From a virus (taxonomy: Duplodnaviria; Heunggongvirae; Uroviricota; Caudoviricetes): a stretch of DNA of 64,000 nucleotides. A program made the translations under genes and the position numbers. The notes under the pieces were generated by a model that worked only from the letters and a program-made list of their open reading frames with translations, ran no database searches and had not been told where the DNA came from. The stretch lies in the IMG/VR virus record IMGVR_UViG_3300029861_000002; one strand, written 5' to 3'. This document shows, one piece after another, positions 85 to 44,146 of the stretch; position 1 is the first letter of the stretch, and every line of letters begins with the position of its first letter.

Positions 85-160
85 GGGGCATTAGCTCAGT
101 TGGGAGAGCGCCTGCCTTGCAAGCAGGAGGTCACGAGTTCGACCCTCGTATGTTCCACCA
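85..160 (+). tRNA. tRNA-Ala(UGC)
   Basis: Cloverleaf folded by eye. Acceptor stem GGGGCAU/AUGUUCC with G3:U70, anticodon loop cuUGCaa, T-loop GTTCGAC, encoded CCA. Confidence 0.85.
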
Positions 161-370
161 TAGGTATCTACTAACAATTATACATATGATACCATCTAAT
201 GATTACAGGTTTTTATTGATTTCATTGCCATAAAACAATAGGGCATTACCTATTTTCGCCCTCAATAGAAATAGGTGGTTTTCAGTGACGCCGCTGTTCA
301 CCAACTGGAAGAAAAGTTAGTATCTTAATAAAATAGATGATAGAAGTAAGATACTAAAAGTGCGTAATAT

Positions 371-445
371 GCTCGGTTAGTCAAGCGGTAAAGACGCTGG
401 CCTTTCACGCCAGAAGCACGGGTTCGACTCCCGTACCGAGTACCA
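371..445 (+). tRNA. tRNA-Glu(UUC)
   Basis: Acceptor GCUCGGU/ACCGAGU, anticodon arm CUGGC-cuUUCac-GCCAG, T-loop TTCGACT, encoded CCA. Confidence 0.8.
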
Positions 446-477
446 TAAATCAATAGGAAAAGGAGATAAATCTTATT

Positions 478-717
478 ATGAAGAATGTTCACGGGAAGTT
501 CAATTCTTTTGTCGAGCTCGGTCAGGCCCTCGGTATTAAGTGTGCGGTTGAAGCTGAGAAGGTGCATAAGTGCCCTAATTGCGGGAATGAGCTTCGCAAG
601 GTTGGTAACACAAATGTCTATGTTTGTGATTACGGAACTCTTGAGGATACAGATTTGAAGGGAACTCCCGTGCAGGTGCTCACAAAGTGCGGCACTATTG
701 AGATTGACAATACTTAA
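478..717 (+). CDS. small zinc-ribbon protein (hypothetical)
   Basis: 79-aa ORF with RBS AAAGGAG 9 nt upstream. Contains CPNCGN..C..C Cys motifs. Lies inside the tRNA island. Confidence 0.5.
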   Translation: MKNVHGKFNSFVELGQALGIKCAVEAEKVHKCPNCGNELRKVGNTNVYVCDYGTLEDTDLKGTPVQVLTKCGTIEIDNT

Positions 718-727
718 ATAAGAGGAG

Positions 728-759
728 ACCTAAGCAAGTCGATAAACTGCTTTTATATG
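728..759 (+). repeat. 32-bp repeat upstream of a tRNA (GACCTAAGCAAGTCgaTAAACTGCTTTTATAT)
   Basis: Near-identical copy at 10964-10995. Each copy abuts the 5' end of a tRNA gene (759 and 10996). Possible tRNA promoter or processing element. Confidence 0.55.
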
Positions 760-835
760 GCGCCTTCCTCTAAATGGCATAGGAGGCCGGAACCTCACTC
801 CGGCAATATGAGTTCGAATCTCATAGGCGTCACCA
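759..835 (+). tRNA. tRNA with atypical anticodon loop (nominal CUC, Glu?)
   Basis: Acceptor GGCGCCU/AGGCGUC, T-arm ATGAG-TTCGAAT-CTCAT, encoded CCA. The anticodon arm CCGGA-acCUCac-UCCGG has C at position 33 and a 12-nt D-loop, so the isotype is uncertain. Confidence 0.55.
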
Positions 836-1123
836 GACGTATGGACTCCACGGCTCAACAGAGAAAACGGGTCTTTCTTGTGCGTAGAGTATGGTACGGC
901 AAGAATATAATGATTAATTGGCACGCCCTTGCTTTGTTAAAGTGAAACGGTTCCGGCTGATACATCCAGCGGAGGGGCGCAAGAGTACCGTGACTATTAG
1001 AGTTATTTCAAAATGTGAAGTATGTGAGGCGTGGGCCAGGAGTGGCAATGCAGACCAACTTAGAAGCGTCTAGGCATTGAGTAGCAGAAATATGTTTTGA
1101 TTATAGCTCTAATAGTTGTATAT

Positions 1124-1198
1124 CGCAGAGAGGGTGTTGGTTCCCTGTCGAGTCTCATAAACTCGATTACGTGAGTTCGATTCTCACCTCTGCATCCA
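1124..1198 (+). tRNA. tRNA-Met/Ile2(CAU) with C1-A72 mismatch
   Basis: Anticodon loop cuCAUaa, T-arm GTGAG-TTCGATT-CTCAC, 3' CTCTGCA-T-CCA. Position 1:72 is unpaired and initiator-like, but the anticodon stem lacks the GGG/CCC signature. Confidence 0.7.
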
Positions 1199-1447
1199 TA
1201 AAAGACTGACATATTGGGAACCTATTTCTGAGACGCTTACGAGTCTCTCAAGTGCGATAATAGGCTGTCAGAAGGGCACTACCATTTTAAATATTCGACA
1301 AGGAGGTAATAAAATGATGGATATTGATGATTTCATTTTCGCAGAGACAGAAGTTATCCCAAGCAATAGGTAAGATAACTTATATGTTCAATGCGGCCAC
1401 CGAGAGGTGTTGGTTCCAAGCCCATGAAACGCAGAGGAGACATATTT

Positions 1448-1536
1448 GGAGGGGTGGCAGAGTGGTTGAATGCAAGGGATTGCTAATCCCTCGGCCACAG
1501 AAATGTGACCCGGAGGTTCGAATCCTCTCCCCTTCG
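1448..1536 (+). tRNA. tRNA-Ser(GCU)
   Basis: Type II tRNA. Acceptor GGAGGGG/CCCCUUC, D-arm GCAGAGTGGTTGAATGC, anticodon arm AGGGA-uuGCUaa-UCCCU, long variable arm, discriminator G, no encoded CCA. Confidence 0.8.
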
Positions 1537-1614
1537 CGTTATCAAGTAGAAGCCTTCACGTGGCGATAATGTTTTTACTAATTCTACAAAAATAAAAAGG
1601 AGCTGTTTAGATTT

Positions 1615-2220
1615 ATGGCATACATTTATTAGATAACCAACGACATAAACTAGAAAGTTTATGTCGGAAAAACAGAGTTTTCTATTGAAAAGCGTTTTAG
1701 GGAACATTGCAAGGATGCTTTCAAGGAGCAAAATGAGAAACGCCCATTATATGCCGCTATGCGAAAATATGGGGTAGAGCATTTCCATATAGAACTTCTT
1801 GAAGAAACAGATAATCCAGAAGAGAGAGAAAGATTCTGGATTGAACAATTAGGAAGTTTTAAGTATGGATATAATGCTACCTTAGGCGGCGACGGGAGAA
1901 GATATGTTGATTATGATTTAGTAATTAAATTATATGACGAATGTCACTCTCGTAATAAAGTGCATGAGTTAGTTGGATATGATAAAGGGACTATTTCAAG
2001 AATATTGGATTCTATTTCTACTCATGAAGAAAGAGATCGTTTTGGTCATATTCAGCTTCAAAAGCCAGTAGCAAGATTAGATAAAAACACTGGAGAAATT
2101 TTGGAAGTGTTTGATTCTGTTAGTGAAGCGGAACGGAAGTATAATACTAACAGACATATAGGACAAGTATGTCTTGGGAAAAGAAAAACTGCTGGCGGAT
2201 TTAAGTGGAAATATATTTAA
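1615..2220 (+). CDS. GIY-YIG homing endonuclease (2 in-frame TAG)
   Basis: RBS AAAAAGGAG. Translation MAYIY[TAG]ITNDIN[TAG]KVYVGKTEFSIEKRFREH... matches the GIY-YIG core (IYxITN..NGKxYVGxT...R...H). The C-terminus ..KTAGGFKWKYI is shared with the GIY-YIG gene at 45540. Intact only if TAG at 1630 and 1651 is read. Ends with TAA. Confidence 0.7.
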
Positions 2221-2533
2221 GATAGTATCGCCAATCGGGATAGACACTGTTGTATATGCCGGCCGCATATAAACGAGGCGATTGTGTCAATAGCGAAAAC
2301 CGACTAAGCTATTCCGTTCGCTTGCGGTGATAATACAAGCAACTTAATAAATCCGACAAGTTTGGTGGTACTGCTGCGGATGCCGGGAGGAACAGGGGCC
2401 AAAACCACAAGACAGAGGAATGGGTTCGACTCCCATACGGCCGGCAATTAGGCTGGCGGTTGGTGTATAGTGTGGAAACAAGCATACTGTCAATCTTATT
2501 ACCCTGAGCCGAGGTTTATATCGGCCATTATAT

Positions 2534-2609
2534 GCTGGATTAGCTCAATAGGTAGAGCAATCGCCTTGTAAGCGATAGGTTAAGAGTTCGAGTCTCTTAT
2601 CCAGCTCCA
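2534..2609 (+). tRNA. tRNA-Thr(UGU)
   Basis: Acceptor GCUGGAU/AUCCAGC, anticodon loop cuUGUaa, T-loop TTCGAGT, encoded CCA. Confidence 0.85.
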
Positions 2610-2802
2610 GCCTCGGCAGAGGCGTTTAAACGCGGCAAGGGAGTGATTCCTCCTATCTGTAAGATATTGTGGCCACTTTATTGAGCAGTCCGTATGGTAA
2701 ATCGAGTCGGATAGGGTTGGATAGGGCGCAGAGAATTGTACCGCCAATTCCGAGCGCAAAGGCCTGAGGCCAATACCTGATATTAAAATCTATTGCCAAT
2801 AT

Positions 2803-2879
2803 GTTGTGCGTAGCTTAATTGGTAGAGCATCAGATTGTGACTCTGAAAGGTGCGAGTTCAAGCCTCGTCGTACACCCCA
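2803..2879 (+). tRNA. tRNA-His(GUG) with genomically encoded G-1
   Basis: Anticodon arm UCAGA-uuGUGac-UCUGA, T-loop TTCAAGC. G-1 (2803) pairs with C73 (2876), encoded CCA, one U1-C72 mismatch. Confidence 0.8.
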
Positions 2880-2941
2880 TAGACCTATTCAGCAATCTTA
2901 ATATATTTTTGATAATATATGGCCAAAGGAGGTCTAGTAAA

Positions 2942-3100
2942 ATGGATTTAAAAACTATAAAGCAGGCTCAAAAGAAATCTCCAGAAGAGCTGCAAGAATA
3001 TCTTCATTTTAGACGGAGAGGTTCTATAACAAGAGCAAGGAAAGGAAAAGGTTCCTTTAAGAGAAAACTCAAGCATAAAAATCTTTTTGAAAATTCTTAA
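2942..3100 (+). CDS. small basic protein (hypothetical)
   Basis: 52 aa with RBS AAAGGAGG. Lys/Arg-rich C-terminus, TAA stop. Confidence 0.35.
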   Translation: MDLKTIKQAQKKSPEELQEYLHFRRRGSITRARKGKGSFKRKLKHKNLFENS

Positions 3101-3141
3101 TTTTTATTATATAATATATATAGAAAGTTAAGGAAAGGAAG
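3084..3141 (+). promoter_or_regulatory. conserved phage promoter + leader (extended -10 TATAAT followed by ATATATAGAAAGTTAAGGAAAGGAAG)
   Basis: TTGAAA -35-like element, TATAAT, then the conserved leader/RBS block. The same block recurs at about 7695, 13830, 14545, 17800, 20575, 24225, 26470, 28865, 30490, 36435, 41285, 49008 and 57150. Confidence 0.6.
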
Positions 3142-3152
3142 TTTGAGTTTTA

Positions 3153-3428
3153 ATGATTATTGCTTCTGCAATTAAATTTTTTCCCCATTTCGGCGAATAC
3201 CCCGTGATTATTTGCGGGAAGCGCCATGCAGATTGCTTTGAGGAGGCATATCAAATGGGGTATGAGTGGGATAAAGAAGATTTAGTTCAGGGATTCTTGA
3301 CTGATGATTCTAGGTTCCTTGATAGATATGACGCAAAACCCGAAGCCCGCAAATGTAGACAGTTAATTGTTGATGATGATAAATGTCGAGAGCTTTTTAG
3401 CGAAGATATGTGGCCTGAAGAGGATTGA
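3153..3428 (+). CDS. hypothetical protein
   Basis: 91-aa ORF preceded by the conserved promoter/leader TATAATATATATAGAAAGTTAAGGAAAGGAAG. Confidence 0.55.
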   Translation: MIIASAIKFFPHFGEYPVIICGKRHADCFEEAYQMGYEWDKEDLVQGFLTDDSRFLDRYDAKPEARKCRQLIVDDDKCRELFSEDMWPEED

Positions 3429-3533
3429 GGTTGGCTACAGAGCCTATAAACCCTGTAGTGCGCGAGTACGAGAGAAGGACGCGCCAGAGAAATATTCTTT
3501 TCCTTTCGGGTTGGCGAAACATCCAACCAAAAT

Positions 3534-3610
3534 GCGTGTGTAGCTCAGTAGGCTAGAGCACCTGCCTTTTAAGCAGGGAGTCGCGAGTTCGAATCTCGCC
3601 ACACGCACCA
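3534..3610 (+). tRNA. tRNA-Lys(UUU)
   Basis: Acceptor GCGUGUG/CACACGC, anticodon loop cuUUUaa, T-loop TTCGAAT, encoded CCA. Confidence 0.85.
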
Positions 3611-3613
3611 TAT

Positions 3614-3689
3614 GCGGGATTAGTGTCAGCGGCTAGCACGTCTGCCTTCCAAGCAGAAAGGGCCGGTTCGAATCCGGTATCTTGCTCCA
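3614..3689 (+). tRNA. tRNA-Gly(UCC)
   Basis: Anticodon arm UCUGC-cuUCCaa-GCAGA, T-arm GCCGG-TTCGAAT-CCGGT, encoded CCA. Confidence 0.8.
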
Positions 3690-3860
3690 TTCCAACTATA
3701 AAGTTGGATAAATTCTCGAGAAGGGGTTTCACTGTTCCTAAGATGAGGCTACAATCATCAATACAGTGGTCAAGTGGTTTTCTTCTGCCGTTTACCAGTC
3801 AGTGGTGTAGCTCCAGAATAACGGCAAACCCTAGGAGGGTTGCAAACTTCCTAGTTTTAT

Positions 3861-3937
3861 ACTTCGGTAGTTCAGCTGGCTAGAATCCTCGACTGATAAT
3901 CGAGAGGTCGTGAGTTCAAGTCTCACCCGGAGTACCA
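3861..3937 (+). tRNA. tRNA-Ile(GAU)
   Basis: Acceptor ACUUCGG/CCGGAGU, anticodon arm CUCGA-cuGAUaa-UCGAG, T-loop TTCAAGT, encoded CCA. Confidence 0.85.
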
Positions 3938-4019
3938 GAATTAGGTTCTCTTTTCTATGATGAATTTGTTTGGTTCTCTTTTTCATCCAGTTTGCGGTCT
4001 GGTCAAAACCGCCTTATAT

Positions 4020-4093
4020 AAGGCGATCGGTTAATGGTAAACCAATGCTCTCCAAAAGCATGACTGTAGGTTCGAGTCCTACTCGCCTTGCCA
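4020..4093 (+). tRNA. tRNA-Trp(CCA)
   Basis: Acceptor AAGGCGA/UCGCCUU, anticodon arm AUGCU-cuCCAaa-AGCAU, T-loop TTCGAGT, discriminator G, encoded CCA. Confidence 0.8.
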
Positions 4094-4114
4094 ATATAAA
4101 GGAGGTTGATAAAA

Positions 4115-4348
4115 ATGGTAATGGATATTAACATCAAGAGTACCAATGATGTTGAGCGTCTAAATGCCGTAGCGAGTAAAACTCCAGATGTGCTTTGGGT
4201 TCATTCCAATGATGGCATGATTATGGTTGATGCTCGTAGTCTCCTTGGTTTGTTTGCCTTGATTGGTAAACCATGCAAGTTAGTTGCAGAAGATAGCACA
4301 GATTATAAAGTGCTTACCAAGGTGGCAAAAAAGGCCGGGGTAGCTTAA
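4115..4348 (+). CDS. hypothetical protein (faint HPr-like pattern)
   Basis: RBS AAGGAGG 9 nt upstream of ATG 4115. MVMDINIKSTNDVERLNAV...VDARSLLGLFALIG loosely resembles the phosphocarrier HPr fold. Confidence 0.45.
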   Translation: MVMDINIKSTNDVERLNAVASKTPDVLWVHSNDGMIMVDARSLLGLFALIGKPCKLVAEDSTDYKVLTKVAKKAGVA

Positions 4349-4359
4349 CCCCATTATTT

Positions 4360-4436
4360 GCCCCAGTAGCTCAGTTGGAAAGAGCACGCGCCTTCTAAGC
4401 GCGGTGTCAGGGGTTCGAGTCCCTTCTGGGGTACCA
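4360..4436 (+). tRNA. tRNA-Arg(UCU)
   Basis: Acceptor GCCCCAG/CUGGGGU, anticodon arm CGCGC-cuUCUaa-GCGCG, T-loop TTCGAGT, encoded CCA. Confidence 0.85.
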
Positions 4437-4516
4437 TTTCCGTTAGTTTAAAAGTGAAAACACAAGAGCGCGCGTCTTGTTTGCGAGTTGAGCATCGCCT
4501 CGCACGGAAAACCTAT

Positions 4517-4591
4517 GGGTTGTTAGCTTAACGGGCAGAGCAGTAGGTTGAAGCCCTACGGGACGAGGTTCGAGTCCTCGATAACCCACCA
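4517..4591 (+). tRNA. tRNA-Phe(GAA)
   Basis: Acceptor GGGUUGU/AUAACCC, anticodon arm GUAGG-uuGAAgc-CCUAC, T-loop TTCGAGT, encoded CCA. Confidence 0.85.
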
Positions 4592-4695
4592 GCCGAGAAA
4601 TCGGCAAACTATCTTTTCTATTTTTTTACAAGACCCTCTATGGTTATAGAGTCTAGAGTTCGATTCTTTCTGCAATAGATAGAGGGTCGCTATAT

Positions 4696-5026
4696 GGGGA
4701 TGCGTAGGTTCGACGGGGTAATGAGAAACTAGGATACACGGGTAGGCATACCGCCTTAAGGAGCAACAAAATTAAACGACAACGATTATTTTTCTAATAA
4801 CATCGCAGCTTGAGCATAGCTCGCTGTTTTAATCCCTTGGATTTCTCTATTTTCCTTTAATTAAATAGAGTGGTGGAGGCAGAGTACAACTGGTACTGCT
4901 CTATGGTTATTAGTAGTTTCAGCTAAAACTCCATTTATAAAAGTTTAAAGTGAAACTATCGTGTAATAATATTCTAGTTATGTAGTTATTTCGGACACGG
5001 AGTGCGACTCTCCGTCATCTCCACCA
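4696..5026 (+). ncRNA. ssrA: tmRNA (SsrA), about 331 nt
   Basis: The 5' end GGGGATGCGTAGGTTCGACGGGG matches the tmRNA consensus GGGGnnGnnnnGGnTTCGACnGGG. The 3' end has T-arm CGGAG-TGCGACT-CTCCG, acceptor CATCTCC pairing with the 5' GGGGATG, discriminator A, CCA. The internal tag frame is GCA ACA AAA ... ATC GCA GCT TGA, giving (A)TKLNDNDYFSNNIAA. Confidence 0.8.
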
Positions 5027-5112
5027 AGAGTTTCTTTCTTCTCTTAAAAAGAAAGTGGTGGATAATCGAAACCCAATTCGGCTCCATATATAACATATGT
5101 GGAGGAATTAAT

Positions 5113-5511
5113 ATGACAGAATTAGAAAGAGGATATTTGGCTGGCATTATTGATGGTGAGGGAAGTATTACTCTCACCAAGGATAAATAGTTTAGGTATC
5201 CAGTATTAGAAGTGTCTAGTACAACATCTCAAATTGTAGAATATCTTAAAGAGCATTTTGGAGGAGTTATTTCCAAGAAAAATGAGCGTAATCCAAAATG
5301 GAAACAGGCTTATATTTGGAAGATAGAGCGGAGAAAGGCTATTTCTTTGTTAGAAGAGATTGTCAGTTATCTTAATGAACCAAAGAAAAAAGCTAGAGCT
5401 TAGTTAATAATTAAAGACTATATACGCTTAACTCCTAGAAATGGGAGATATTCTGAAGAAATAAAATAGCAAAAACTTAAATTTGAAGAAGAATTTTTCA
5501 AGATAGAATAA
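5113..5511 (+). CDS. LAGLIDADG-family homing endonuclease (3 in-frame TAG)
   Basis: RBS GGAGGA. The N-terminus MTELERGYLAGIIDGEGSI is a LAGLIDADG motif. The frame stays open through TAG at 5188, 5401 and 5467 to TAA at 5509. It starts 87 nt after the tmRNA 3' end. The C-terminal extension beyond 5403 is less certain. Confidence 0.6.
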
Positions 5512-5538
5512 TTTACATAACAAGAGGAAAGGAAGTTT

Positions 5539-5994
5539 ATGATGGAGATTGAAAGAAAGTGGATTCTTCAAAGAGTTCCAACAGAGTTTCGATTAGTTAG
5601 AAATGCTCAGATAGAGCAATTCTACGTTTCAACAAGTCCTGAAGTGCGCTTGAGGCACAATCCCGCGAGCAACGAGCCTTTTAGAATTACAATTAAGGGC
5701 GAAGGGACTCTATCAAGAGAAGAGATTGAAACAAAAGTCTCTGAAAACTTCTATAATCAAGTCAAAGAGTTCGTGAATAAACCTCTGATTAAGAAAGATT
5801 ATTCTATCTTTAATTGCGGCGGGTATCCACTCGCGGTTTCTGTAGTAGACGATGGAGCTTTTATCTACGCAGAGGTCGAATTCGAATCGGAGGAGCAGGC
5901 CCGCGACTATCAGTTTCCTATTGATGATGCTATTGAAGTGACGGATGATTCAAATTACAAGATGAAAAATTATTGGTTACGTACTCGTAATTAA
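5539..5994 (+). CDS. CYTH-domain protein (triphosphate-tunnel metalloenzyme / CyaB-like)
   Basis: The N-terminal MMEIERKWIL pattern (EIERKF-type) is typical of the CYTH domain. 151 aa, RBS AGGAAAGGAAG. Confidence 0.65.
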   Translation: MMEIERKWILQRVPTEFRLVRNAQIEQFYVSTSPEVRLRHNPASNEPFRITIKGEGTLSREEIETKVSENFYNQVKEFVNKPLIKKDYSIFNCGGYPLAVSVVDDGAFIYAEVEFESEEQARDYQFPIDDAIEVTDDSNYKMKNYWLRTRN

Positions 5995-6068
5995 AATTTA
6001 GACCCGTACTGCAAAGAACTCTTTACCTGTTGTTTGAACTGGAGAAAAAGATGATGGGTCTAGTATAT

Positions 6069-6145
6069 GCGCCAGTAGCATAACGGAGAGTGCACAAGGC
6101 TACGAACCTTGGCTAGTGGGAGTTCGAATCTTCTCTGGCGTACCA
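6069..6145 (+). tRNA. tRNA-Arg(ACG)
   Basis: Acceptor GCGCCAG/CUGGCGU, anticodon arm CAAGG-cuACGaa-CCUUG, T-loop TTCGAAT, encoded CCA. Confidence 0.8.
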
Positions 6146-6148
6146 TAT

Positions 6149-6236
6149 GCAGAGGTGGCCGAGTCTGGTTTATGGCACCTGCCTAGAAAGCAGGCGGTCG
6201 AAAGGCCCGTGGGTTCAAATCCTACCCTCTGCGCCA
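6149..6236 (+). tRNA. tRNA-Ser (anticodon read as AGA, A34)
   Basis: Type II tRNA. Acceptor GCAGAGG/CCUCUGC, Ser-like D-arm GTGGCCGAGTCTGG, anticodon arm CCUGC-cuAGAaa-GCAGG, long variable arm, G73, CCA. A at position 34 is unusual. Confidence 0.65.
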
Positions 6237-6514
6237 CATTGGTATCTTACATACAAGTTTGAAAGGCAGTAAGAATAAATCGTCGGGCCTTAAATCCGAG
6301 CCAATAATAGGAAAGCTATATTCCGAGATACCCTTCGAGGATTGGAGCAACGAAGGTAAAAATAAAGTCCCCAAGATGTTTTCCGGTATCAGTACACAAC
6401 CGGCATAGAGCAGAAGGGTTCAGGGTCGGTGCCTCGTATAGCATTAGAGGAAACGGTAAGGACCAGGCATGGAAATCTGCGGAAGTGCGAGAAACCCTGT
6501 ATAGGAGAATATCT

Positions 6515-6673
6515 ATGAAAAATAAAATTGCGTGGTCAGATTTCTTTCAAGAATTTATTATCTGCGTTAAATACCTTGCAGATGATAATTGGTATTTTAT
6601 ATTTAGGGATGCAGTTGGAAATCAAAATCCAATTAAAGCCAAAACAAAATACTCCTATTTTGATTGGCAGTAA
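6515..6673 (+). CDS. hypothetical small protein
   Basis: 52 aa, weak RBS AGGAGAA, ends TAA immediately upstream of tRNA-Pro. Confidence 0.3.
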   Translation: MKNKIAWSDFFQEFIICVKYLADDNWYFIFRDAVGNQNPIKAKTKYSYFDWQ

Positions 6674-6680
6674 GTTATAT

Positions 6681-6751
6681 AGAGGATGTAGTGTAACGGT
6701 AACACGCCTGCTTTGGGAGCAGGAATAGCGGTTCGAATCCGACATCTTCTA
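6681..6751 (+). tRNA. tRNA-Pro(UGG) with weakened T-stem and no encoded CCA (copy adjacent to the HNH cassette)
   Basis: Acceptor AGAGGAU/AUCUUCU, D-stem GUGU/ACAC, anticodon arm CCUGC-uuUGGga-GCAGG, T-loop TTCGAAT. The 3' 23 nt CGGTTCGAATCCGACATCTTCTA is repeated at 7449-7471, where it is followed by CCA. Confidence 0.65.
6729..6751 (+). repeat. 23-bp direct repeat (copy 1) = tRNA-Pro T-arm/3' acceptor CGGTTCGAATCCGACATCTTCTA
   Basis: Identical 23-mer at 7449-7471, where it is followed by CCA. The two copies flank the 698-bp HNH cassette. Confidence 0.8.
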
Positions 6752-6874
6752 GGCTTATGAGGAGATTACCTGCACGTGGTATAAGCTGCTAAAACTAAAA
6801 ATCTCCATCGGTCAAAATTGGCCAAAGTAATTATCACTATTCTTATTTATAATAAGAATAAAGGAGGTAGTTTT

Positions 6875-7447
6875 ATGGCCAAAGCAATGACTTAGGAAGA
6901 ATTCGAGAAGAGAGTATCAGAATATACAAAAGATAGTGTAGACGTTATTTCTAAGTATATTAACAAAAGAACAAAAGTTAAAGTTAGATGTAAAACTTGC
7001 GGTTTTGAATGGGGAATGTCTCCTGCATCTTTAATGCCGAATGCGGCATCTAAACATACTTTTGTTGGTTGTTCTAACTGTAAGTATGAAGAAGTAGAAT
7101 GTCAATGGTGTCACAAGAAATTTCGTAGATTAAAAACTGAATTGGCTAAAAATAAAAGCGGATTCGTATATTGTTCTAGGGAATGTGGAAACCGACATAA
7201 GAACTCTTTGATTATTTAGGTAAATGACGGTGTGAACTATCACAGAAATGCCTTTTTGGCTTACCCACACAAATGCGATATTTGTGAATGGGGTGAAGAT
7301 GAACGAGTTTTAGAAGTTCATCATTTAGATGAAGATAGGTCAAATAATAAGATAGAAAACTTGCGAATCTTATGTCCTATATGTCATAAAAAACTTACTT
7401 TGCATCTTTACTCATATAAAGAGTTAAAAGATAAATACGGAGGATGA
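6875..7447 (+). CDS. HNH homing endonuclease (2 in-frame TAG)
   Basis: RBS AAGGAGG. The N-terminus MAKAMT[TAG]EEFEKRV matches the common HNH-endonuclease N-terminal 'TQEEF' pattern. Zinc-ribbon Cys pairs, then the HNH core EVHHLDEDRSNNKIENLRILCPICH. One frame from 6875 through TAG at 6893 and 7217 to TGA at 7445. Flanked by a 23-bp tRNA-Pro 3'-end repeat. Confidence 0.75.
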
Positions 7448-7448
7448 T

Positions 7449-7471
7449 CGGTTCGAATCCGACATCTTCTA
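7449..7471 (+). repeat. 23-bp direct repeat (copy 2) of the tRNA-Pro 3' end, followed by CCA
   Basis: Identical to 6729-6751. Overlaps the stop codon of the HNH gene. Confidence 0.8.
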
Positions 7472-15087: not shown

Positions 15088-15405
15088 ATGGGAAAGTCTC
15101 GTAAGAAAACCCCGGCTGTATCTTCTATCTCTTATAATGGAGGAAAGAGAAGAGCCAATAAAAAAGTTAGAAGGCTCCTTAAAGACCCGGAAGTAAACTT
15201 TGATAAAGGGTCTTTTAAAAAGGCTTATTGCTCTTGGGATATTCGAGATTATCGAGAAGTAGCTCCTTCCTTTGAAGTTTTTTCAGAGAGATGGTTGGAA
15301 AGATGGAAGAGAAATAGAGCTAGGCTAGGAAGGAGAAATCCTGAAACTCCTCCCACCAGAAAAGAGCTTTGGCAGACATACCAGAGATGGTACTTGAGAA
15401 AATAA
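15088..15405 (+). CDS. highly basic small protein (putative nucleic-acid-binding)
   Basis: RBS TAAGGAGG directly after the suppressor tRNA. 105 aa, K/R-rich (KSRKKTPAVSSISYNGGKRRANKKVRR...). A terminator-like hairpin follows. Confidence 0.55.
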   Translation: MGKSRKKTPAVSSISYNGGKRRANKKVRRLLKDPEVNFDKGSFKKAYCSWDIRDYREVAPSFEVFSERWLERWKRNRARLGRRNPETPPTRKELWQTYQRWYLRK

Positions 15406-15494
15406 ATCCTTCCTTTCTTTTAACCGCGAGAGAGTTATCTTAAATAAATACTAATAGCTCTCTCGCATTTCTTTTATTGAGGAGTTGGCAATTT

Positions 15495-15707
15495 ATGTGG
15501 CAAAATAATATTGAATTTTTAGATATTATTTCGATTATTTCTTTTGTGCTTTAGTTGCAAAATGCTGAAAGTCACGAAGTGGAAAGATTAAGAAATGAAG
15601 TTTCTAAACGCTTTGATGAACAAACCAAAATTCTGTTAGATGCTATGAACAGTAGATTGGACAGAATTGAAATGATGCTCAAAGATTTAAATGCTCGAGT
15701 GGGCTAA
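15495..15707 (+). CDS. small protein with hydrophobic N-terminus and coiled coil (1 in-frame TAG), overlaps tRNA start
   Basis: RBS GGAG. MWQNNIEFLDIISIISFVL[TAG]LQNAESHEVERLRNE..., TAA stop. Low confidence. Confidence 0.3.
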
Positions 15708-15769
15708 TTGGTATAGCCGTCAAGCTCAAACCTTGATGTTTGTGAGTTCGAGTCTCACCTCGAGTACCA
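15693..15769 (+). tRNA. type-I (short variable arm) tRNA with anticodon CAA (nominally Leu), isotype uncertain
   Basis: Acceptor GCUCGAG/CUCGAGU, D-arm GGCU-AAUUGGUAU-AGCC, anticodon arm UCAAG-cuCAAac-CUUGA, 5-nt variable loop, T-arm GTGAG-TTCGAGT-CTCAC, A73, CCA. Bacterial tRNA-Leu is normally type II. Confidence 0.6.
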
Positions 15770-15884
15770 TTTCTTTATAAAGAACGGGAGCTTCCTGTGC
15801 CTCGTTAGCAGAACTCAGGATGGTTGGCGCTGTGAAAGTTAAATGCGTCCATGTGCGGAGCGAAGGTTGGTCGCCGCACGATAT

Positions 15885-15961
15885 GGCAGTGTACTCAAGT
15901 GGATCAAGAGGCTTGTCTGCAAAACAAGTATACGCCAGTTCGAATCTGGCCATTGCCTCCA
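15885..15961 (+). tRNA. tRNA-Cys(GCA)
   Basis: Acceptor GGCAGUG/CAUUGCC, anticodon arm CUUGU-cuGCAaa-ACAAG, T-arm GCCAG-TTCGAAT-CTGGC, U73 discriminator (Cys identity), encoded CCA. Confidence 0.75.
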
Positions 15962-16090: not shown

Positions 16091-17614
16091 ATGAATACAA
16101 TTCTTAACGCTATGAAGCAGATGGACAACATCACCACTACTGAAAACGGCGGCATTACCTATAAGTCTACGATGAGTGGAATCATGGATTTGTTCGCCAT
16201 GGGAGCTGCTTACCGCAAGCGCTCCGAGGATGACGTAATCTTCCTGTTCGATAAGGCTTTTAAGGAAGATGAAACTTATGCGCTCAAGTGCTTGTTTTAT
16301 CTGCGCGATGTGCGTGGTGGACAGGGCGAGCGCAGATTTTTCCGAGTAGCAACTAAGTGGTTGGCAAATCACCACACCGATGCAATGCGCCGCAATCTGA
16401 AGTATGTTCCCGAGTTCGGCAGATGGGATGACCTCTACGGCTTCGTTGGAACTCCCCTGGAAGATGAGGCTTTCGACATTATGTACCATCAGTTGGCTCT
16501 TGATGTTGAGTGTAAGACCCCTTCTCTTCTGGCTAAGTGGTTGAAGTCTGAAAATACCAGCTCCGCAGAATCTCGTAAGTTGGCTACTATTACTCGCACC
16601 CACTTCCGTATGACTCCTCGCCAGTATCGCAAGACTTTGTCCGTTCTCCGCAAGCGCATTAAGGTTCTTGAGAGACTTATGTCCGAGAATCGTTGGGACG
16701 AAATCGAGTTCGATAAGATTCCCTCTAAGGCGGGATTGATCTATCGTAATGCTTTCGCCCGTCATGACATTATGAGGGAGAAGGCTGATAAGCAGACTTA
16801 TGCGGAGTTTGCTAAGAGCACTGACACAAAGGTAAATGCCAAGGCCTTGAACCCCTGTGAGGTTGTCCATGAGGCGGTTAAGTTGAGTAGAGCATATCAT
16901 GCTGATGATACCGATCGTCTGATGATTGGCAAGTACTGGGATAATCTGGCAGATTATTTCCATGATGCCGTTTTCAATGGGGTTGCTGTTGTAGATACTT
17001 CTGCGTCTATGACAGGTGGCTTCAATGAGATTAATCCTATTGATGTGGCTATCTCTCTGGGAATGTATTGCGCTGAAAAGTGTAATGAAAGTTCTCCTTG
17101 GTATGGTCACTACATCACCTTCTCTCGTCAGGCTAGACTGGTACCTGTTGAGGGCATCGACTTCGTTGACAAGGTACATCGCATTTATAGCAAGAATCTC
17201 TGTGAGAATACTAACATTAAGAGTGTATTCGACTTAATTCTCAAGCTCACTATTGAGAATGGAGTAAAGCAGGAGGATATGCCTAAGAATGTAATCGTAA
17301 TTTCTGATATGGAGTTCGATTCCTGCGCCTCATTCGACGATAATTACGGTTATTGGAGTCGTTACAATAGAGATACCAAGTCTGAAATGGAGAAGATTGC
17401 AGACATTTGGAAGGCCCATGGTTATGAATTACCTAAGCTCGTTTTCTGGAATGTCCAGGCTCGTCAGGATAACATTCCTATGAGAGATAATGGCAGAGTT
17501 ACCTTTGTCAGTGGTTATTCTCCTGTGCTTTTCGAGCAGATTATGACCGGCAAGACTGGTATTGATCTTATCCTTGATAAGCTCAATAGTCAGAGATATG
17601 CGGTAATCCACTAA
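16091..17614 (+). CDS. Ro60-like protein (TROVE-like N-terminal region + vWA/MIDAS domain)
   Basis: 507 aa with RBS AAGGAGA. The MIDAS motif VVDTSASMTG and vWA-like C-terminal half sit behind an alpha-helical N-terminal region, the same architecture as Ro60/Rsr RNA-quality-control proteins. The TROVE assignment is inferred. Confidence 0.55.
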   Translation: MNTILNAMKQMDNITTTENGGITYKSTMSGIMDLFAMGAAYRKRSEDDVIFLFDKAFKEDETYALKCLFYLRDVRGGQGERRFFRVATKWLANHHTDAMRRNLKYVPEFGRWDDLYGFVGTPLEDEAFDIMYHQLALDVECKTPSLLAKWLKSENTSSAESRKLATITRTHFRMTPRQYRKTLSVLRKRIKVLERLMSENRWDEIEFDKIPSKAGLIYRNAFARHDIMREKADKQTYAEFAKSTDTKVNAKALNPCEVVHEAVKLSRAYHADDTDRLMIGKYWDNLADYFHDAVFNGVAVVDTSASMTGGFNEINPIDVAISLGMYCAEKCNESSPWYGHYITFSRQARLVPVEGIDFVDKVHRIYSKNLCENTNIKSVFDLILKLTIENGVKQEDMPKNVIVISDMEFDSCASFDDNYGYWSRYNRDTKSEMEKIADIWKAHGYELPKLVFWNVQARQDNIPMRDNGRVTFVSGYSPVLFEQIMTGKTGIDLILDKLNSQRYAVIH

Positions 17615-21946: not shown

Positions 21947-23221
21947 ATGGCTTATTTTGGTCTGGTGACTAAGATTCAGAACGTGCGGAAAGACCCGAAT
22001 TCCGATCGGCTATATCTAGCGGATTGCTTTAATGAAGGAGTAATCGTAGGCCCTGACATGAAGACCGGAGATCTGGTGCTCTATCTGCCCACCGATGGAG
22101 AAATTGAACGCTGGTTTGGTAATGAATTCTGCCTTTTCCGCAAGAATGAAGATGGATCTATTCAGGGCGGATACCTTGAAAATAATGGCCATGTGCGGGC
22201 CATTAAGCTCCGCGGCAATCAGTCTTCTGGTATTGTCATTGCTCTTGATCGAGTCTATGAAAAGTTTGGTGACCAGCATTGGAGTAATGGAGATAAAGTA
22301 ACTACTATCAATGACAAGGAGTTTTGCCGTAAGTATATTCCTAAGCGAAAGAGCGATTCTACTTATGGAGCAAAGACTTCTTACAAAGGGCGCAAAGCTG
22401 AGGGGATTACTTATCCTGAGTTCTCTATGCATACTGATACCGAGCAGCTTGCATATAACTTTGATAAGTTCCGTGAGGGTGATGAACTAAATATGACCCT
22501 CAAGATGCATGGCACCTCTCAGCGCTCTATGAATACTTATGCAGAGCTTCCTAATGGTTTCTTCCGTCGCCTTTTCCATATGAAGAAGCGCACTAAGCAG
22601 GCTTATGTTCTTGGAACTCGCCGTTGTGTGGTGACTGAAAACTCTCAGGGGTACTATGGGAACGATCAGTTCCGTATGCCTCATCATGAAGCTTTAAAGC
22701 CCTATCTTGAGCCTGGGATGGAAGTTTTTTACGAAGTAGTAGGCTACTATGGGCCAAATGAAGAGAATACTATTATGCCTATTGGTGATAATACTAAAAT
22801 CAATGATAAGGCTTTTGTAAAGCAGTTTGGTAAACGGTCTATCTTCTCTTATGGCTGTGAACCCGGTCAGAGTAAAATGTATATCTATCGCATCACCTCT
22901 GAAAATGGAGAGAGAGAGTGGACTCCTGACGAAATTACTGCCTGGTGCGATTGGCATGGTTTTAATCGCGTTCCTGTAATTGAGAACTTCAAGTTTACTA
23001 CCGTTGAGGATCTTCAGGAGCGTATCAATAAATACTTCGAAGATCTCGCAGATCCGATCGGCCGCACCCATGTTAAGGAAGGAGTAGTTATCCGAATTGT
23101 AAATCGGCGTACTTTTACTGCTTTCAAGTCAAAAACCTTTGAATTTAAAGTTATTTCTGGGATTGCTACAGAGAGCGTAAATTCTAGTAATATTTCTGAA
23201 GATATTCTTGCGGAAATGTAA
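21947..23221 (+). CDS. putative ATP-dependent RNA ligase (Rnl2-like nucleotidyltransferase motif I)
   Basis: 424 aa. The segment TLKMHGTSQRS resembles the Rnl2/ligase motif I (KxHGxN/S lysine-adenylate site). RBS GAGGAGG. The family assignment is tentative. Confidence 0.45.
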   Translation: MAYFGLVTKIQNVRKDPNSDRLYLADCFNEGVIVGPDMKTGDLVLYLPTDGEIERWFGNEFCLFRKNEDGSIQGGYLENNGHVRAIKLRGNQSSGIVIALDRVYEKFGDQHWSNGDKVTTINDKEFCRKYIPKRKSDSTYGAKTSYKGRKAEGITYPEFSMHTDTEQLAYNFDKFREGDELNMTLKMHGTSQRSMNTYAELPNGFFRRLFHMKKRTKQAYVLGTRRCVVTENSQGYYGNDQFRMPHHEALKPYLEPGMEVFYEVVGYYGPNEENTIMPIGDNTKINDKAFVKQFGKRSIFSYGCEPGQSKMYIYRITSENGEREWTPDEITAWCDWHGFNRVPVIENFKFTTVEDLQERINKYFEDLADPIGRTHVKEGVVIRIVNRRTFTAFKSKTFEFKVISGIATESVNSSNISEDILAEM

Positions 23222-43234: not shown

Positions 43235-44146
43235 ATGATTATAGGATTATTATTAATAGCTATAATCGGGTTAATAATTTATATCTATTATCTCAAAAAG
43301 CAAACCCTTGAAGTAGTTTAGATTAACACAGATAATCAAAGAAAAAACGCTGAAATAGAAAAAGAAATAGCACATAATAGAGAAGTGTTATCTAACATAA
43401 AAAATAATATAACATTTGAGAACGATATTCTTTCTTCTTTATTAAAATCTTAGGAAGAAATGCGGGAAAGTGCTTAGAAACAAGCTGATGAAGCCTATTA
43501 GGCACGCGTCTCCGCACTTGTAAAATCCTACAAAGAAAAAGAATAGGAACTTTCTTTGACTTTTGATGCTAAAAATCAAGATTTGCTAAAGAAAATTTCT
43601 ATTGAAGCCGGGAAATTAGCTGATTTATAGGCTAAGTAGCTTTCCTATATTTAGGCCAAATAGAGATAGGAAGAAATTGACTCTAATCAAGATTATTATC
43701 GTCTTGCTCTTGATGAAATAGATATTAATGATATTACGTTATTGCGCGAATTACAACCAAGATTTGTAAAGAAAGAAAGTATAGATAAACTAATATGGGA
43801 AGTATATTATAAGCCAGCTTATGATATTTTAATGGCCCATTTGTTTCCCAAGGCAGTTAAATATTGCGGTATCTATAGAATAACTGATTTAACTACAGGC
43901 AAGTCCTATATTGGACAATCGGTTGATATAAAAGAACGATTTAGATAGCATATTAAATCTGCTTTAACCTATGGAAAGGTAACTAATAAGTTATACTCTG
44001 CTATGCAGAAATCTGGAGTTCATAATTTCGTGTTTGAAGTCTTAGAAGAAGTAACCAGAGACAAACTAAACGAGAGAGAAACCTATTGGATTGAGTTCTA
44101 TAAGACTAAAGAATTAGGTCTTAATGGAACTAAAGGAGGAGCTTAA
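43235..44146 (+). CDS. GIY-YIG homing endonuclease with N-terminal TM/coiled-coil region (about 11 in-frame TAG)
   Basis: The C-terminal half CGIYRITDLTTGKSYIGQSVDIKERFR[TAG]HIKSAL...YWIEFYKTKELGLNGTKGG is a GIY-YIG core. The single 304-codon frame is interrupted only by TAG. Confidence 0.6.

Follow-up and report, generated by a model that had tools for sequence, protein, structure and literature searches.

A probable one-piece tmRNA gene in the tRNA island of a TAG-recoded phage, linked to a LAGLIDADG homing endonuclease

Does a tailed phage that has changed the meaning of one of its stop codons also carry its own RNA for rescuing stalled ribosomes? This question is raised by positions 4696-5026 of a 64,000-nt stretch of the Caudoviricetes record IMGVR_UViG_3300029861_000002 (the whole stretch is referred to as the window below), where an earlier note, made by reading the letters, had placed a transfer-messenger RNA (tmRNA, ssrA) gene within a tRNA island. 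Our analysis of the sequence indicates that the locus is very probably a functional, phage-borne, one-piece tmRNA.

The Rfam covariance model RF00023 matched the plus strand at exactly the coordinates proposed in the earlier note, with 69.9 bits against a gathering score of 47 (E = 3.6e-25 in the 64-kb window), and the alignment extended over model positions 1-374, which is the complete model. Related phage tmRNAs scored 70.9-76 bits with the same model. The 5' end (4696-4718) reads GGGGATGCGTAGGTTCGACGGGG, with the tmRNA-type motif GGGGAUGCGUAGGUUCGACGGGG, and the T-arm, the acceptor stem and the CCA end were all present at the positions where they had been read by eye. The coordinates of the gene, its parts and the neighbouring elements are collected in Table 1.

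The fold was tested on an alignment of 17 distinct family tmRNAs, the window's own included, with identities going down to about 70%. When acceptor stem, T-arm, helix 2, helix 5 and the hairpin of pseudoknot 2 (PK2) were counted together, 93.8% of the cells paired, compared with 43-47% when the partners were slid, and compensatory change on both sides was found in 27 of 50 pairs, a level reached by none of 500 shuffles. RNAalifold gave the same helices independently, plus a hairpin that resolves PK1. The folding energy of the whole tmRNA was -87.5 kcal/mol (z = -2.3). The G3:U pair was kept in all 17 sequences, and each of the four inner acceptor pairs showed compensatory changes. In helix 2, 15 of the 21 pairs had changed on both sides and 93-100% of cells paired. 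For PK1 the pairing reached 90.9% of cells compared with 36-48% in slid controls, with four of the five stem-2 pairs being compensatory; two earlier PK1 models (GGGU/GCCU+GC/GC and AGGC/GCCU+CC/GG) were dropped for the H-type model that RNAalifold indicated.

The helices of PK2 to PK4 were tabulated with a purpose-written script and compared between subgroups. PK2 stem 1 appears in the family as GGA/UCC, GAG/CUC, GCUU/AAGC and AAG/CUU, as read from the alignment. The loop pairing of PK3 was maintained across subgroups as AACUG/UAGUU, AACCG/UGGUU, UAAC/GUUA and AAUC/GAUU; the form AACCA/UGGUU in one related locus (L019; related loci are given as L numbers) was seen by eye only, and the script gave AACC/GGUU for L016 and L067. 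All three helices of PK4 covary, with the series AUGG/CCAU, AUGGU/ACCAU, AUAG/CUAU, AACUG/CAGUU, GAGUG/CACUU and GAGCG/CGCUU. Both a covariance-model match and a foldable pseudoknot and tag region, the lack of which the earlier note would have taken as grounds for withdrawing its proposal, were found.

Several observations speak against a functional tmRNA and have to be weighed. ARAGORN, which the earlier note had suggested as a check, made no tmRNA call at 4696-5026 in the window with default settings. Neither -ps90 nor -ps80 produced a valid tmRNA at the locus, and a permuted call on the opposite strand at -ps80 was spurious. The T-arm itself is odd (ACGGAG/TGCGACT/CTCCGT in DNA letters): it carries a G at the position of the U55 conserved in tRNAs and most tmRNAs, where the tRNA-like consensus is GUUCRANNC on a 5-bp stem, and the extra pair and the G could alter the modification of the T-loop or the binding of EF-Tu or SmpB. 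Furthermore, the first stems of the pseudoknots are only 3-5 bp long, and the 3' strand of PK3 stem 2 (4914-4918) overlaps the closing helix of PK4 (4916-4921) by 3 nt in the window. Finally, tblastn with an approximate E. coli SmpB sequence detected no candidate at E < 0.3, either in the window or across 1.1 Mb of related loci, a search that covered about half of the genome.

The failure of ARAGORN could be traced to the T-arm. When the 19-nt arm was swapped in silico for the canonical arm of the relatives, the program called the gene, with the tag DNDYFSNNIAA; thus the check failed on the native sequence and succeeded once the T-arm had been made canonical. Furthermore, the same 6-bp stem and UGCGACU loop (core GGAGUGCGACUCUCC) was found in alphaproteobacterial-type permuted tmRNAs of marine viral contigs, indicating that the arm is a natural variant. 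The pattern scan of viral contigs that revealed them returned mostly such unrelated permuted tmRNAs and was used solely to show that the variant exists elsewhere.

The start of the tag peptide had to be revised. The earlier note had tentatively chosen GCA 4763-4765 as the resume codon and given the tag as (A)TKLNDNDYFSNNIAA. The reading frame, the TGA stop and the IAA end of this proposal were retained. The start was not, since that GCA lies inside the 3' strand of PK1 stem 2; it is also upstream of a 2-nt indel that separates subgroups. In the RF00023 alignment the consensus resume codon is set against GAC 4778-4780, in the same frame, and ARAGORN picked the homologous GAC in ten relatives as well as in the window sequence with the repaired T-arm. 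The tag should therefore be read as (A)DNDYFSNNIAA. UAA occupies positions -5 to -3 of this GAC; in E. coli, UAG is found at -5 to -3 of the resume codon. The tags of the family include DNDYFSSNIAA, DNDYFDSYMAA, DNDYFDSHMAA, DNNYFDSHMAA, DNSYFENHLAA, DNDYFENYLAA, DNAYFENHLAA and DEDYFENYLAA, plus more distant forms. They have 9-12 codons (11 except in three distant members) and all are in frame. All but one begin with Asp, nearly all have the Y-F core, and every one ends in [I/L/M/Q]-A-A followed by TGA despite the nucleotide divergence. The conservation of the frame and of the C-terminus points to selection on the peptide itself. If LAA tags are a guide, the hydrophobic-Ala-Ala end should be a protease signal.

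How widely the gene occurs was examined in about 50 related viral loci, which were collected by DNA-pattern scans and by a scan for a nearby AAA-ATPase protein. With nhmmer and ARAGORN, a tmRNA was found in about 20 of them. Eighteen tmRNAs (17 distinct, the window's included) lay on phage contigs of 81-201 kb, each within a tRNA island, with 70-78% nucleotide identity between subgroups. A blastn search with 4400-5300 found no match in 50,697 GenBank phage records, and a query with the gyrase region gave trivial matches only among GenBank phages. Among 185,579 bacterial species representatives there were two matches to this tmRNA type, both on phage-sized contigs of about 148 kb.

Table 1. Positions of the tmRNA gene, its structural parts and associated elements in the window
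Feature	Position	Strand	Details
tmRNA (ssrA) gene	4696-5026	+	331 nt, one-piece, CCA end encoded; RF00023, nhmmer/ARAGORN homologues, covariation
Acceptor stem	4696-4702 with 5016-5022	+	GGGGAUG with CAUCUCC; G3:U; then A73 and CCA at 5023-5026
D-loop-like segment of the tRNA-like domain	4703-4713	+	CGUAGGUUCGA; fits model consensus GGaUUCGAC; UUCGA invariant in family
Helix 2	4714-4720, 4727-4736, 4737-4740 with 4987-4993, 4970-4979, 4960-4963	+	covariation; RNAalifold
PK1, H-type	4741-4764	+	stem 1 GGU 4741-4743/GCC 4753-4755; stem 2 GCAUACC 4746-4752/GGAGC 4760-4764
Tag frame	4778-4813	+	resume GAC 4778-4780, peptide DNDYFSNNIAA, stop TGA 4811-4813 in helix 5
Helix 5 hairpin around the stop codon	4806-4826	+	CAGC/GCUG, GAGC/GCUC; 84% of cells pair
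PK2 module	4839-4878	+	stem 1 GGA 4839-4841/UCC 4853-4855; loop 1 UUU
PK2 stem 2	4845-4852 with 4863-4870	+	CUCUAUUU with AAAUAGAG; covaries; invariant UGGUGGA(G) next, 4871-4878
PK3	4879-4918	+	hairpin GCAG-AG-UAC 4879-4887/GUA-CUGC 4893-4899; loop AACUG 4888-4892/UAGUU 4914-4918
PK4	4903-4956	+	AUGG 4903-4906/CCAU 4931-4934; AAACU 4926-4930/AGUUU 4942-4946; GUUUCA 4916-4921/UGAAAC 4951-4956
T-arm	4997-5015	+	ACGGAG/CUCCGU 6-bp stem, loop UGCGACU; relatives 5-bp stem, UUCGACU
Second PK2 module copy	5027-5062	+	AGAG-UUU-CUUUCUU-loop-AAGAAAG-UGGUGGA, directly past the CCA end
LAGLIDADG homing endonuclease gene	5113-5511	+	132 amino acids, three in-frame TAG (read as Gln)
Upstream hairpin	4632-4688	+	perfect 10-bp repeat GACCCTCTAT 4632-4641/ATAGAGGGTC 4679-4688
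Suppressor tRNA(CUA)	14995-15069	+	Gln-like, 75 nt; ARAGORN

The 3' end of the gene is joined to a homing endonuclease cassette, and this raises the question whether the RNA is maintained for the cassette's sake. Pfam supported the LAGLIDADG assignment with two families, PF14528 (LAGLIDADG_3, 26.1 with a cut-off of 22.5) and PF00961 (LAGLIDADG_1, 25.9 with a cut-off of 23.1). In blastn comparisons, positions 5028-5518 formed an insertion relative to L067 (position 1027 there), starting right after the CCA end of the tmRNA. In L067 the tmRNA is 315 nt long and its T-arm is canonical, and a CYTH-like gene comes directly after the CCA end; the endonuclease-free canonical junction reads ...GGTTCGACTCCCGCCGGCTCCACCA|AACAAGAGG. 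The counterpart of that gene in the window, which likewise adjoins the tmRNA directly in endonuclease-free relatives, is the open reading frame (ORF) 5539-5994 of 151 amino acids, starting with MMEIERKW; it looks CYTH-like by eye and had no Pfam match at E <= 0.001.

Sequence identity shifts sharply around the cassette. L001 and L067 were 98.3% identical over the 180 nt upstream of the tmRNA, compared with 71.6% within the tmRNA. The window and L004, which represents a second endonuclease-bearing lineage, were 74% identical in the 5' part of the tmRNA, compared with 100% in its last 46 nt and 100% in the 35 nt beyond it, while their endonuclease genes were clearly diverged. The odd T-arm was present in six of six endonuclease-linked alleles, which represent two lineages only, and in none of at least 12 endonuclease-free ones. 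From these patterns we infer co-conversion, with the tmRNA allele and its endonuclease travelling together. The altered 3' end of the tmRNA may protect it against cleavage by the endonuclease. The linked allele may also be an immunity allele, with the enzyme cutting the canonical tmRNA 3' ends of competing phages or of the host ssrA.

A second copy of the PK2 module stands at the same junction. The module consists of a short 5' stem, a UUU loop, a 7-9 bp pyrimidine/purine stem and the invariant UGGUGGA(G), and a covariance model built from it here (R1) found it once per family tmRNA; a second copy after the CCA end was found only in endonuclease-linked alleles. In the window, the downstream copy scored 46.8 bits at 5026-5065 and folded with -14.6 kcal/mol (z = -2.3), and it was 100% identical in L001-L004 and L068. 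The idea that the module is a general phage RNA element was rejected, as the matches of R1 over about 1 Mb were confined to tmRNAs and the endonuclease junction. Both the internal UGGUGGA (4871-4878) and the downstream one (5056-5062) are complementary to the tmRNA 3' end UCCACCA. Partners for the invariant UGGUGGAG were tried by eye in the PK2 loop, the 5' flank and the PK1 region, and none was consistent across the family. The sole stretch complementary to UGGUGGAG in every sequence was the 3' end UCCACCA.

Among the alternatives, the one that survives best builds on this junction. It holds that a tmRNA-shaped RNA has been selected for another or an additional role, as a landing pad or immunity allele for the endonuclease, as an SmpB decoy, or as an RNA that is regulated through masking of its 3' end by the UGGUGGA motifs. 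The insertion of the cassette exactly at the CCA end, the identity of the odd T-arm and its downstream 35 nt in lineages with otherwise diverged tmRNA bodies and endonucleases, the restriction of this arm to endonuclease-linked alleles, and the invariant UGGUGGA complementary to the 3' end are all in its favour. However, the endonuclease-free relatives keep equally conserved tmRNAs with canonical T-arms and conserved tags, which indicates selection on the RNA irrespective of the endonuclease. If the tag were not translated, the conservation of its frame would also be difficult to account for, and the pairing of UGGUGGA with the 3' end is beyond the reach of a covariation test because both partners are invariant. 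We therefore consider a different or additional role improbable.

Still less probable is that the locus is a decaying or non-functional ssrA, either a passenger acquired from a host or an attP-like piece that serves for integration into host ssrA. Phages that integrate into ssrA do carry ssrA fragments, and the T-arm scan also gave a 3' ssrA fragment standing alone in unrelated high-GC viral contigs (L006, L007, L012-L014); the negative ARAGORN result and the deviant T-arm would fit as well. However, the gene is full length, and compensatory changes in every helix together with a kept tag frame at about 70% identity indicate purifying selection on both fold and peptide. Furthermore, the bacterial species representatives yielded this type only on the two phage-sized contigs mentioned above. 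The idea that the gene is a host chromosomal ssrA beside a prophage is similarly improbable: two near relatives were indeed binned into metagenome-assembled genomes (MAGs) labelled Oscillospiraceae and Eubacterium, but their contigs are 148 kb like the viral ones and carry the same tRNA island, the arrangement is repeated in about 20 IMG/VR contigs, and the window gene lies amid 26 tRNAs on its own strand, a ROOL RNA and three homing endonuclease genes, with TAG-recoded phage-type genes downstream whose polymerase is 42% identical to Enterococcus/Bacillus phage genes.

The gene lies in a tRNA island, as the earlier note had stated. The plus-strand island (85-15961) contains 26 tRNAs called by ARAGORN, the ROOL RNA, the three homing endonuclease genes and the tmRNA. 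The note's statement that the phage reads TAG as sense was borne out by a tRNA(CUA), by TAG-rich genes and by TAG/CAG exchange. The tRNA(CUA) is nearest to the window's own tRNA-Gln(UUG) and bears U1.U72 and G73. Coverage of the plus strand by ORFs rose from 35.6 to 47.3 kb when TAG was counted as sense. Some genes had 9-13 in-frame TAG and many had none, a pattern that resembles the TAG-free and TAG-rich genes of recoded gut phages (bioRxiv 10.1101/2021.08.26.457843). The frame of DNA polymerase III alpha crosses a TAG, so that the protein has 926 amino acids in the standard code versus 1300 with TAG as sense, and TAG aligns with CAG between orthologues of the LAGLIDADG endonuclease. Many relatives, among them L002 (4235-4325), L021-L031, L033 and L058, had tRNA(CUA) genes 88-91 nt long, which is the length class of tRNAs with a long variable arm (Ser, Leu, Tyr). 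Given these size classes, the meaning of TAG may differ across the clade.

Downstream of the island we recognized genes for DNA polymerase III alpha, gyrase subunit B, anaerobic ribonucleotide reductase, RNA ligase, PhoH/PIN and a lysin; a GyrA-like protein was recognized by eye only. Among cultured relatives, the polymerase was closest to those of Enterococcus and Bacillus SPbeta-like phages (127-142 kb), with 42% amino-acid identity. Judged from these polymerase relatives and the MAG labels, the host is likely a member of the Firmicutes.

Other elements of the island deserve mention in their own right. The ROOL RNA is full-length (8464-9059, plus strand; RF03087, 350 bits) and lies between tRNA-Gln(UUG) and tRNA-Gln(CUG); L038 also has one. 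The tRNA islands of relatives contain RAGATH-33 (L036), cow-rumen-4 (L045) and an OLE-like fragment (L038). A plus-strand tRNA gene at 9326-9448 has a 48-nt insertion in its anticodon loop. It scored 46.6 bits over 121 nt with the Rfam tRNA model and was called by ARAGORN only with the intron option, as Ile(AAU), an uncertain anticodon assignment. The island endonucleases are of three types, GIY-YIG (1759-2220), LAGLIDADG (5113-5511) and HNH (about 6875-7447), the Pfam check covering the LAGLIDADG gene only, and a GIY-YIG-like C-terminus was noticed in a TAG-rich ORF at 43235-44146. A DUF2828/DUF7788 protein (16091-17614) closes the island, and an RNA ligase (21947-23221) follows about 4 kb beyond it. 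The DUF2828 protein may be Ro60/TROVE-like. The position of these two genes near tRNA, ROOL and tmRNA genes suggests an RNA-maintenance set.

Immediately upstream of the tmRNA, the 10-bp inverted repeat that the earlier note had placed at about 4632-4688 proved to be perfect. It encloses the T-loop-like GAGTTCGATTC and folds with -21.9 kcal/mol (z = -2.9), and it precedes two differing tmRNA alleles, that of the window, L001 and L068 and that of L067. The note had also taken it for a possible tRNA remnant. A tRNA-Arg(UCU) stands at the same position in L002, L022 and L029, separated from the tmRNA by the same ATAT spacer, and the T-arm of this tRNA can be aligned with GAGTTCGATTC. On the other hand, neither ARAGORN nor Rfam called 4632-4688 as a tRNA. 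The repeat is probably a degenerate tRNA remnant. A further hairpin (GCCGAGAAAUCGGC) followed by a U-rich tract occurs at 4592-4626, directly after tRNA-Phe, and L001, L067 and L068 have kept it. Its role may be that of a weak terminator, or of a signal for processing between tRNA-Phe and the tmRNA unit. Between 4300 and 5600, promoter-like sites were at chance level (4 found, 3.3 expected). Terminator-like sites in the same interval were 4 compared with 0.7 expected; one of them is helix 5 inside the tmRNA, and none was placed so as to delimit the tmRNA transcript.

In comparison with known systems, the RNA resembles the bacterial one-piece tmRNA (SsrA, RF00023) in its tRNA-like domain with G3:U, A73 and CCA, its long helix 2, the PK1 ahead of a tag without a start codon, the stop within helix 5, the three further pseudoknots and the hydrophobic-Ala-Ala tag end. 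It differs from bacterial SsrA in being phage-encoded, in the 6-bp T-stem with the UGCGACU loop, in resuming at GAC (Asp) and not at the usual GCN, in its compact 3' domain (331 nt in total), in the invariant UGGUGGA tail on PK2, and in having no SmpB gene seen nearby. Phage tmRNAs as such are known already. For example, three were found in the first 30 mycobacteriophage genomes (PMC1475703), Streptomyces BE2 phages carry them (PMC13191466), and in huge phages a tmRNA has been reported together with SmpB (PMC7162821). The earlier note had called them rare; they are indeed uncommon, but well documented, being present in 402 of 18,146 phage genomes (2.3%) in one survey, which also covers the two-piece tmRNA of the marine phage Melnitz (PMC9004378). 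Like the reported cases, ours belongs to a large phage, here of gut type, with many tRNAs, where upkeep of the hijacked translation apparatus is the presumed role. Unlike them, it is in a lineage without a match among GenBank phages, within a TAG-recoded Firmicutes-type clade, and is linked to a homing endonuclease; unlike that of Melnitz, it is one-piece.

The linkage recalls T4 SegB, a free-standing GIY-YIG homing endonuclease in a phage tRNA region. In both cases the endonuclease gene lies beside stable-RNA genes in a phage tRNA cluster, and here the neighbouring alleles seem to be co-inherited, with the sharp change of identity at the cassette edges. The present enzyme is of the LAGLIDADG type instead of GIY-YIG, and its neighbour is a tmRNA. 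The PK2 module and its downstream copy also recall wcaG RNA (RF01761), each half of which has a GUUUC-hairpin-GUGGYG arrangement. The match of the downstream copy was below threshold (23.1 versus 42 bits) and involved one hairpin only, which makes it a resemblance and no more; unlike wcaG, the module here is found within a tmRNA or directly after one.

On the basis of these features, the tmRNA would be co-transcribed with the other genes of the plus-strand tRNA island and then processed to the CCA end that it encodes. The host alanyl-tRNA synthetase would then add alanine through the determinants G3:U70 and A73, and host SmpB and EF-Tu would bring the tmRNA into ribosomes stalled on messages without a stop codon. 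Translation would restart at GAC 4778, add (A)DNDYFSNNIAA and terminate at UGA, a stop that the phage has not reassigned. In analogy with LAA tags, the hydrophobic-Ala-Ala tail would mark the product for host ClpXP-type proteolysis. This tmRNA allele appears to spread with the LAGLIDADG cassette at its 3' end. The benefit to the phage would be a larger ribosome-rescue capacity during infection, when demand should increase because the amber suppressor drives readthrough of host TAG stops toward mRNA 3' ends, and because damage to host mRNA and tRNA makes non-stop complexes.

Could the tmRNA belong to the code-change toolkit of the TAG-recoded Firmicutes phage clade, clearing and recycling ribosomes that have read through TAG stops of the host and of early phage genes and destroying the extended products? 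More SsrA tagging is said to have been observed by Ueda et al. in 2002 in cells with nonsense suppressor tRNAs. In recoded E. coli, tmRNA acts at UAG-related stalls (PMC6207430). Two observations do not favour such a link. The tRNA(CUA) is nearly clade-wide, while the tmRNA is limited to the window's subclade and scattered others, and in seven relatives bearing a tRNA(CUA) a tmRNA was absent from the 10 kb around the marker gene. Furthermore, the co-occurrence of tmRNA and tRNA(CUA) is uninformative because the suppressor is almost universal in the clade. We therefore offer the toolkit idea as a tentative and rather unlikely one. The code-change machinery named in work on stop-codon-recoded phages comprises suppressor tRNAs, aminoacyl-tRNA synthetases and release factors, and the word 'tmRNA' is absent from the text of Borges et al. 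(2021; bioRxiv 10.1101/2021.08.26.457843) and of the validation paper (PMC9523058).

The finding has consequences for the study of such phages. Phage tmRNAs have mostly been catalogued by ARAGORN, which misses this allele, and surveys may accordingly undercount them. The tag (A)DNDYFSNNIAA (C-terminal ...ADNDYFSNNIAA) can be searched for directly in gut and rumen metaproteomes. The linkage of endonuclease and tmRNA is a neat example of a selfish element moving a stable-RNA allele, and the conservation of a tmRNA in a recoded clade makes it possible to test whether suppression-induced readthrough is connected with ribosome rescue.

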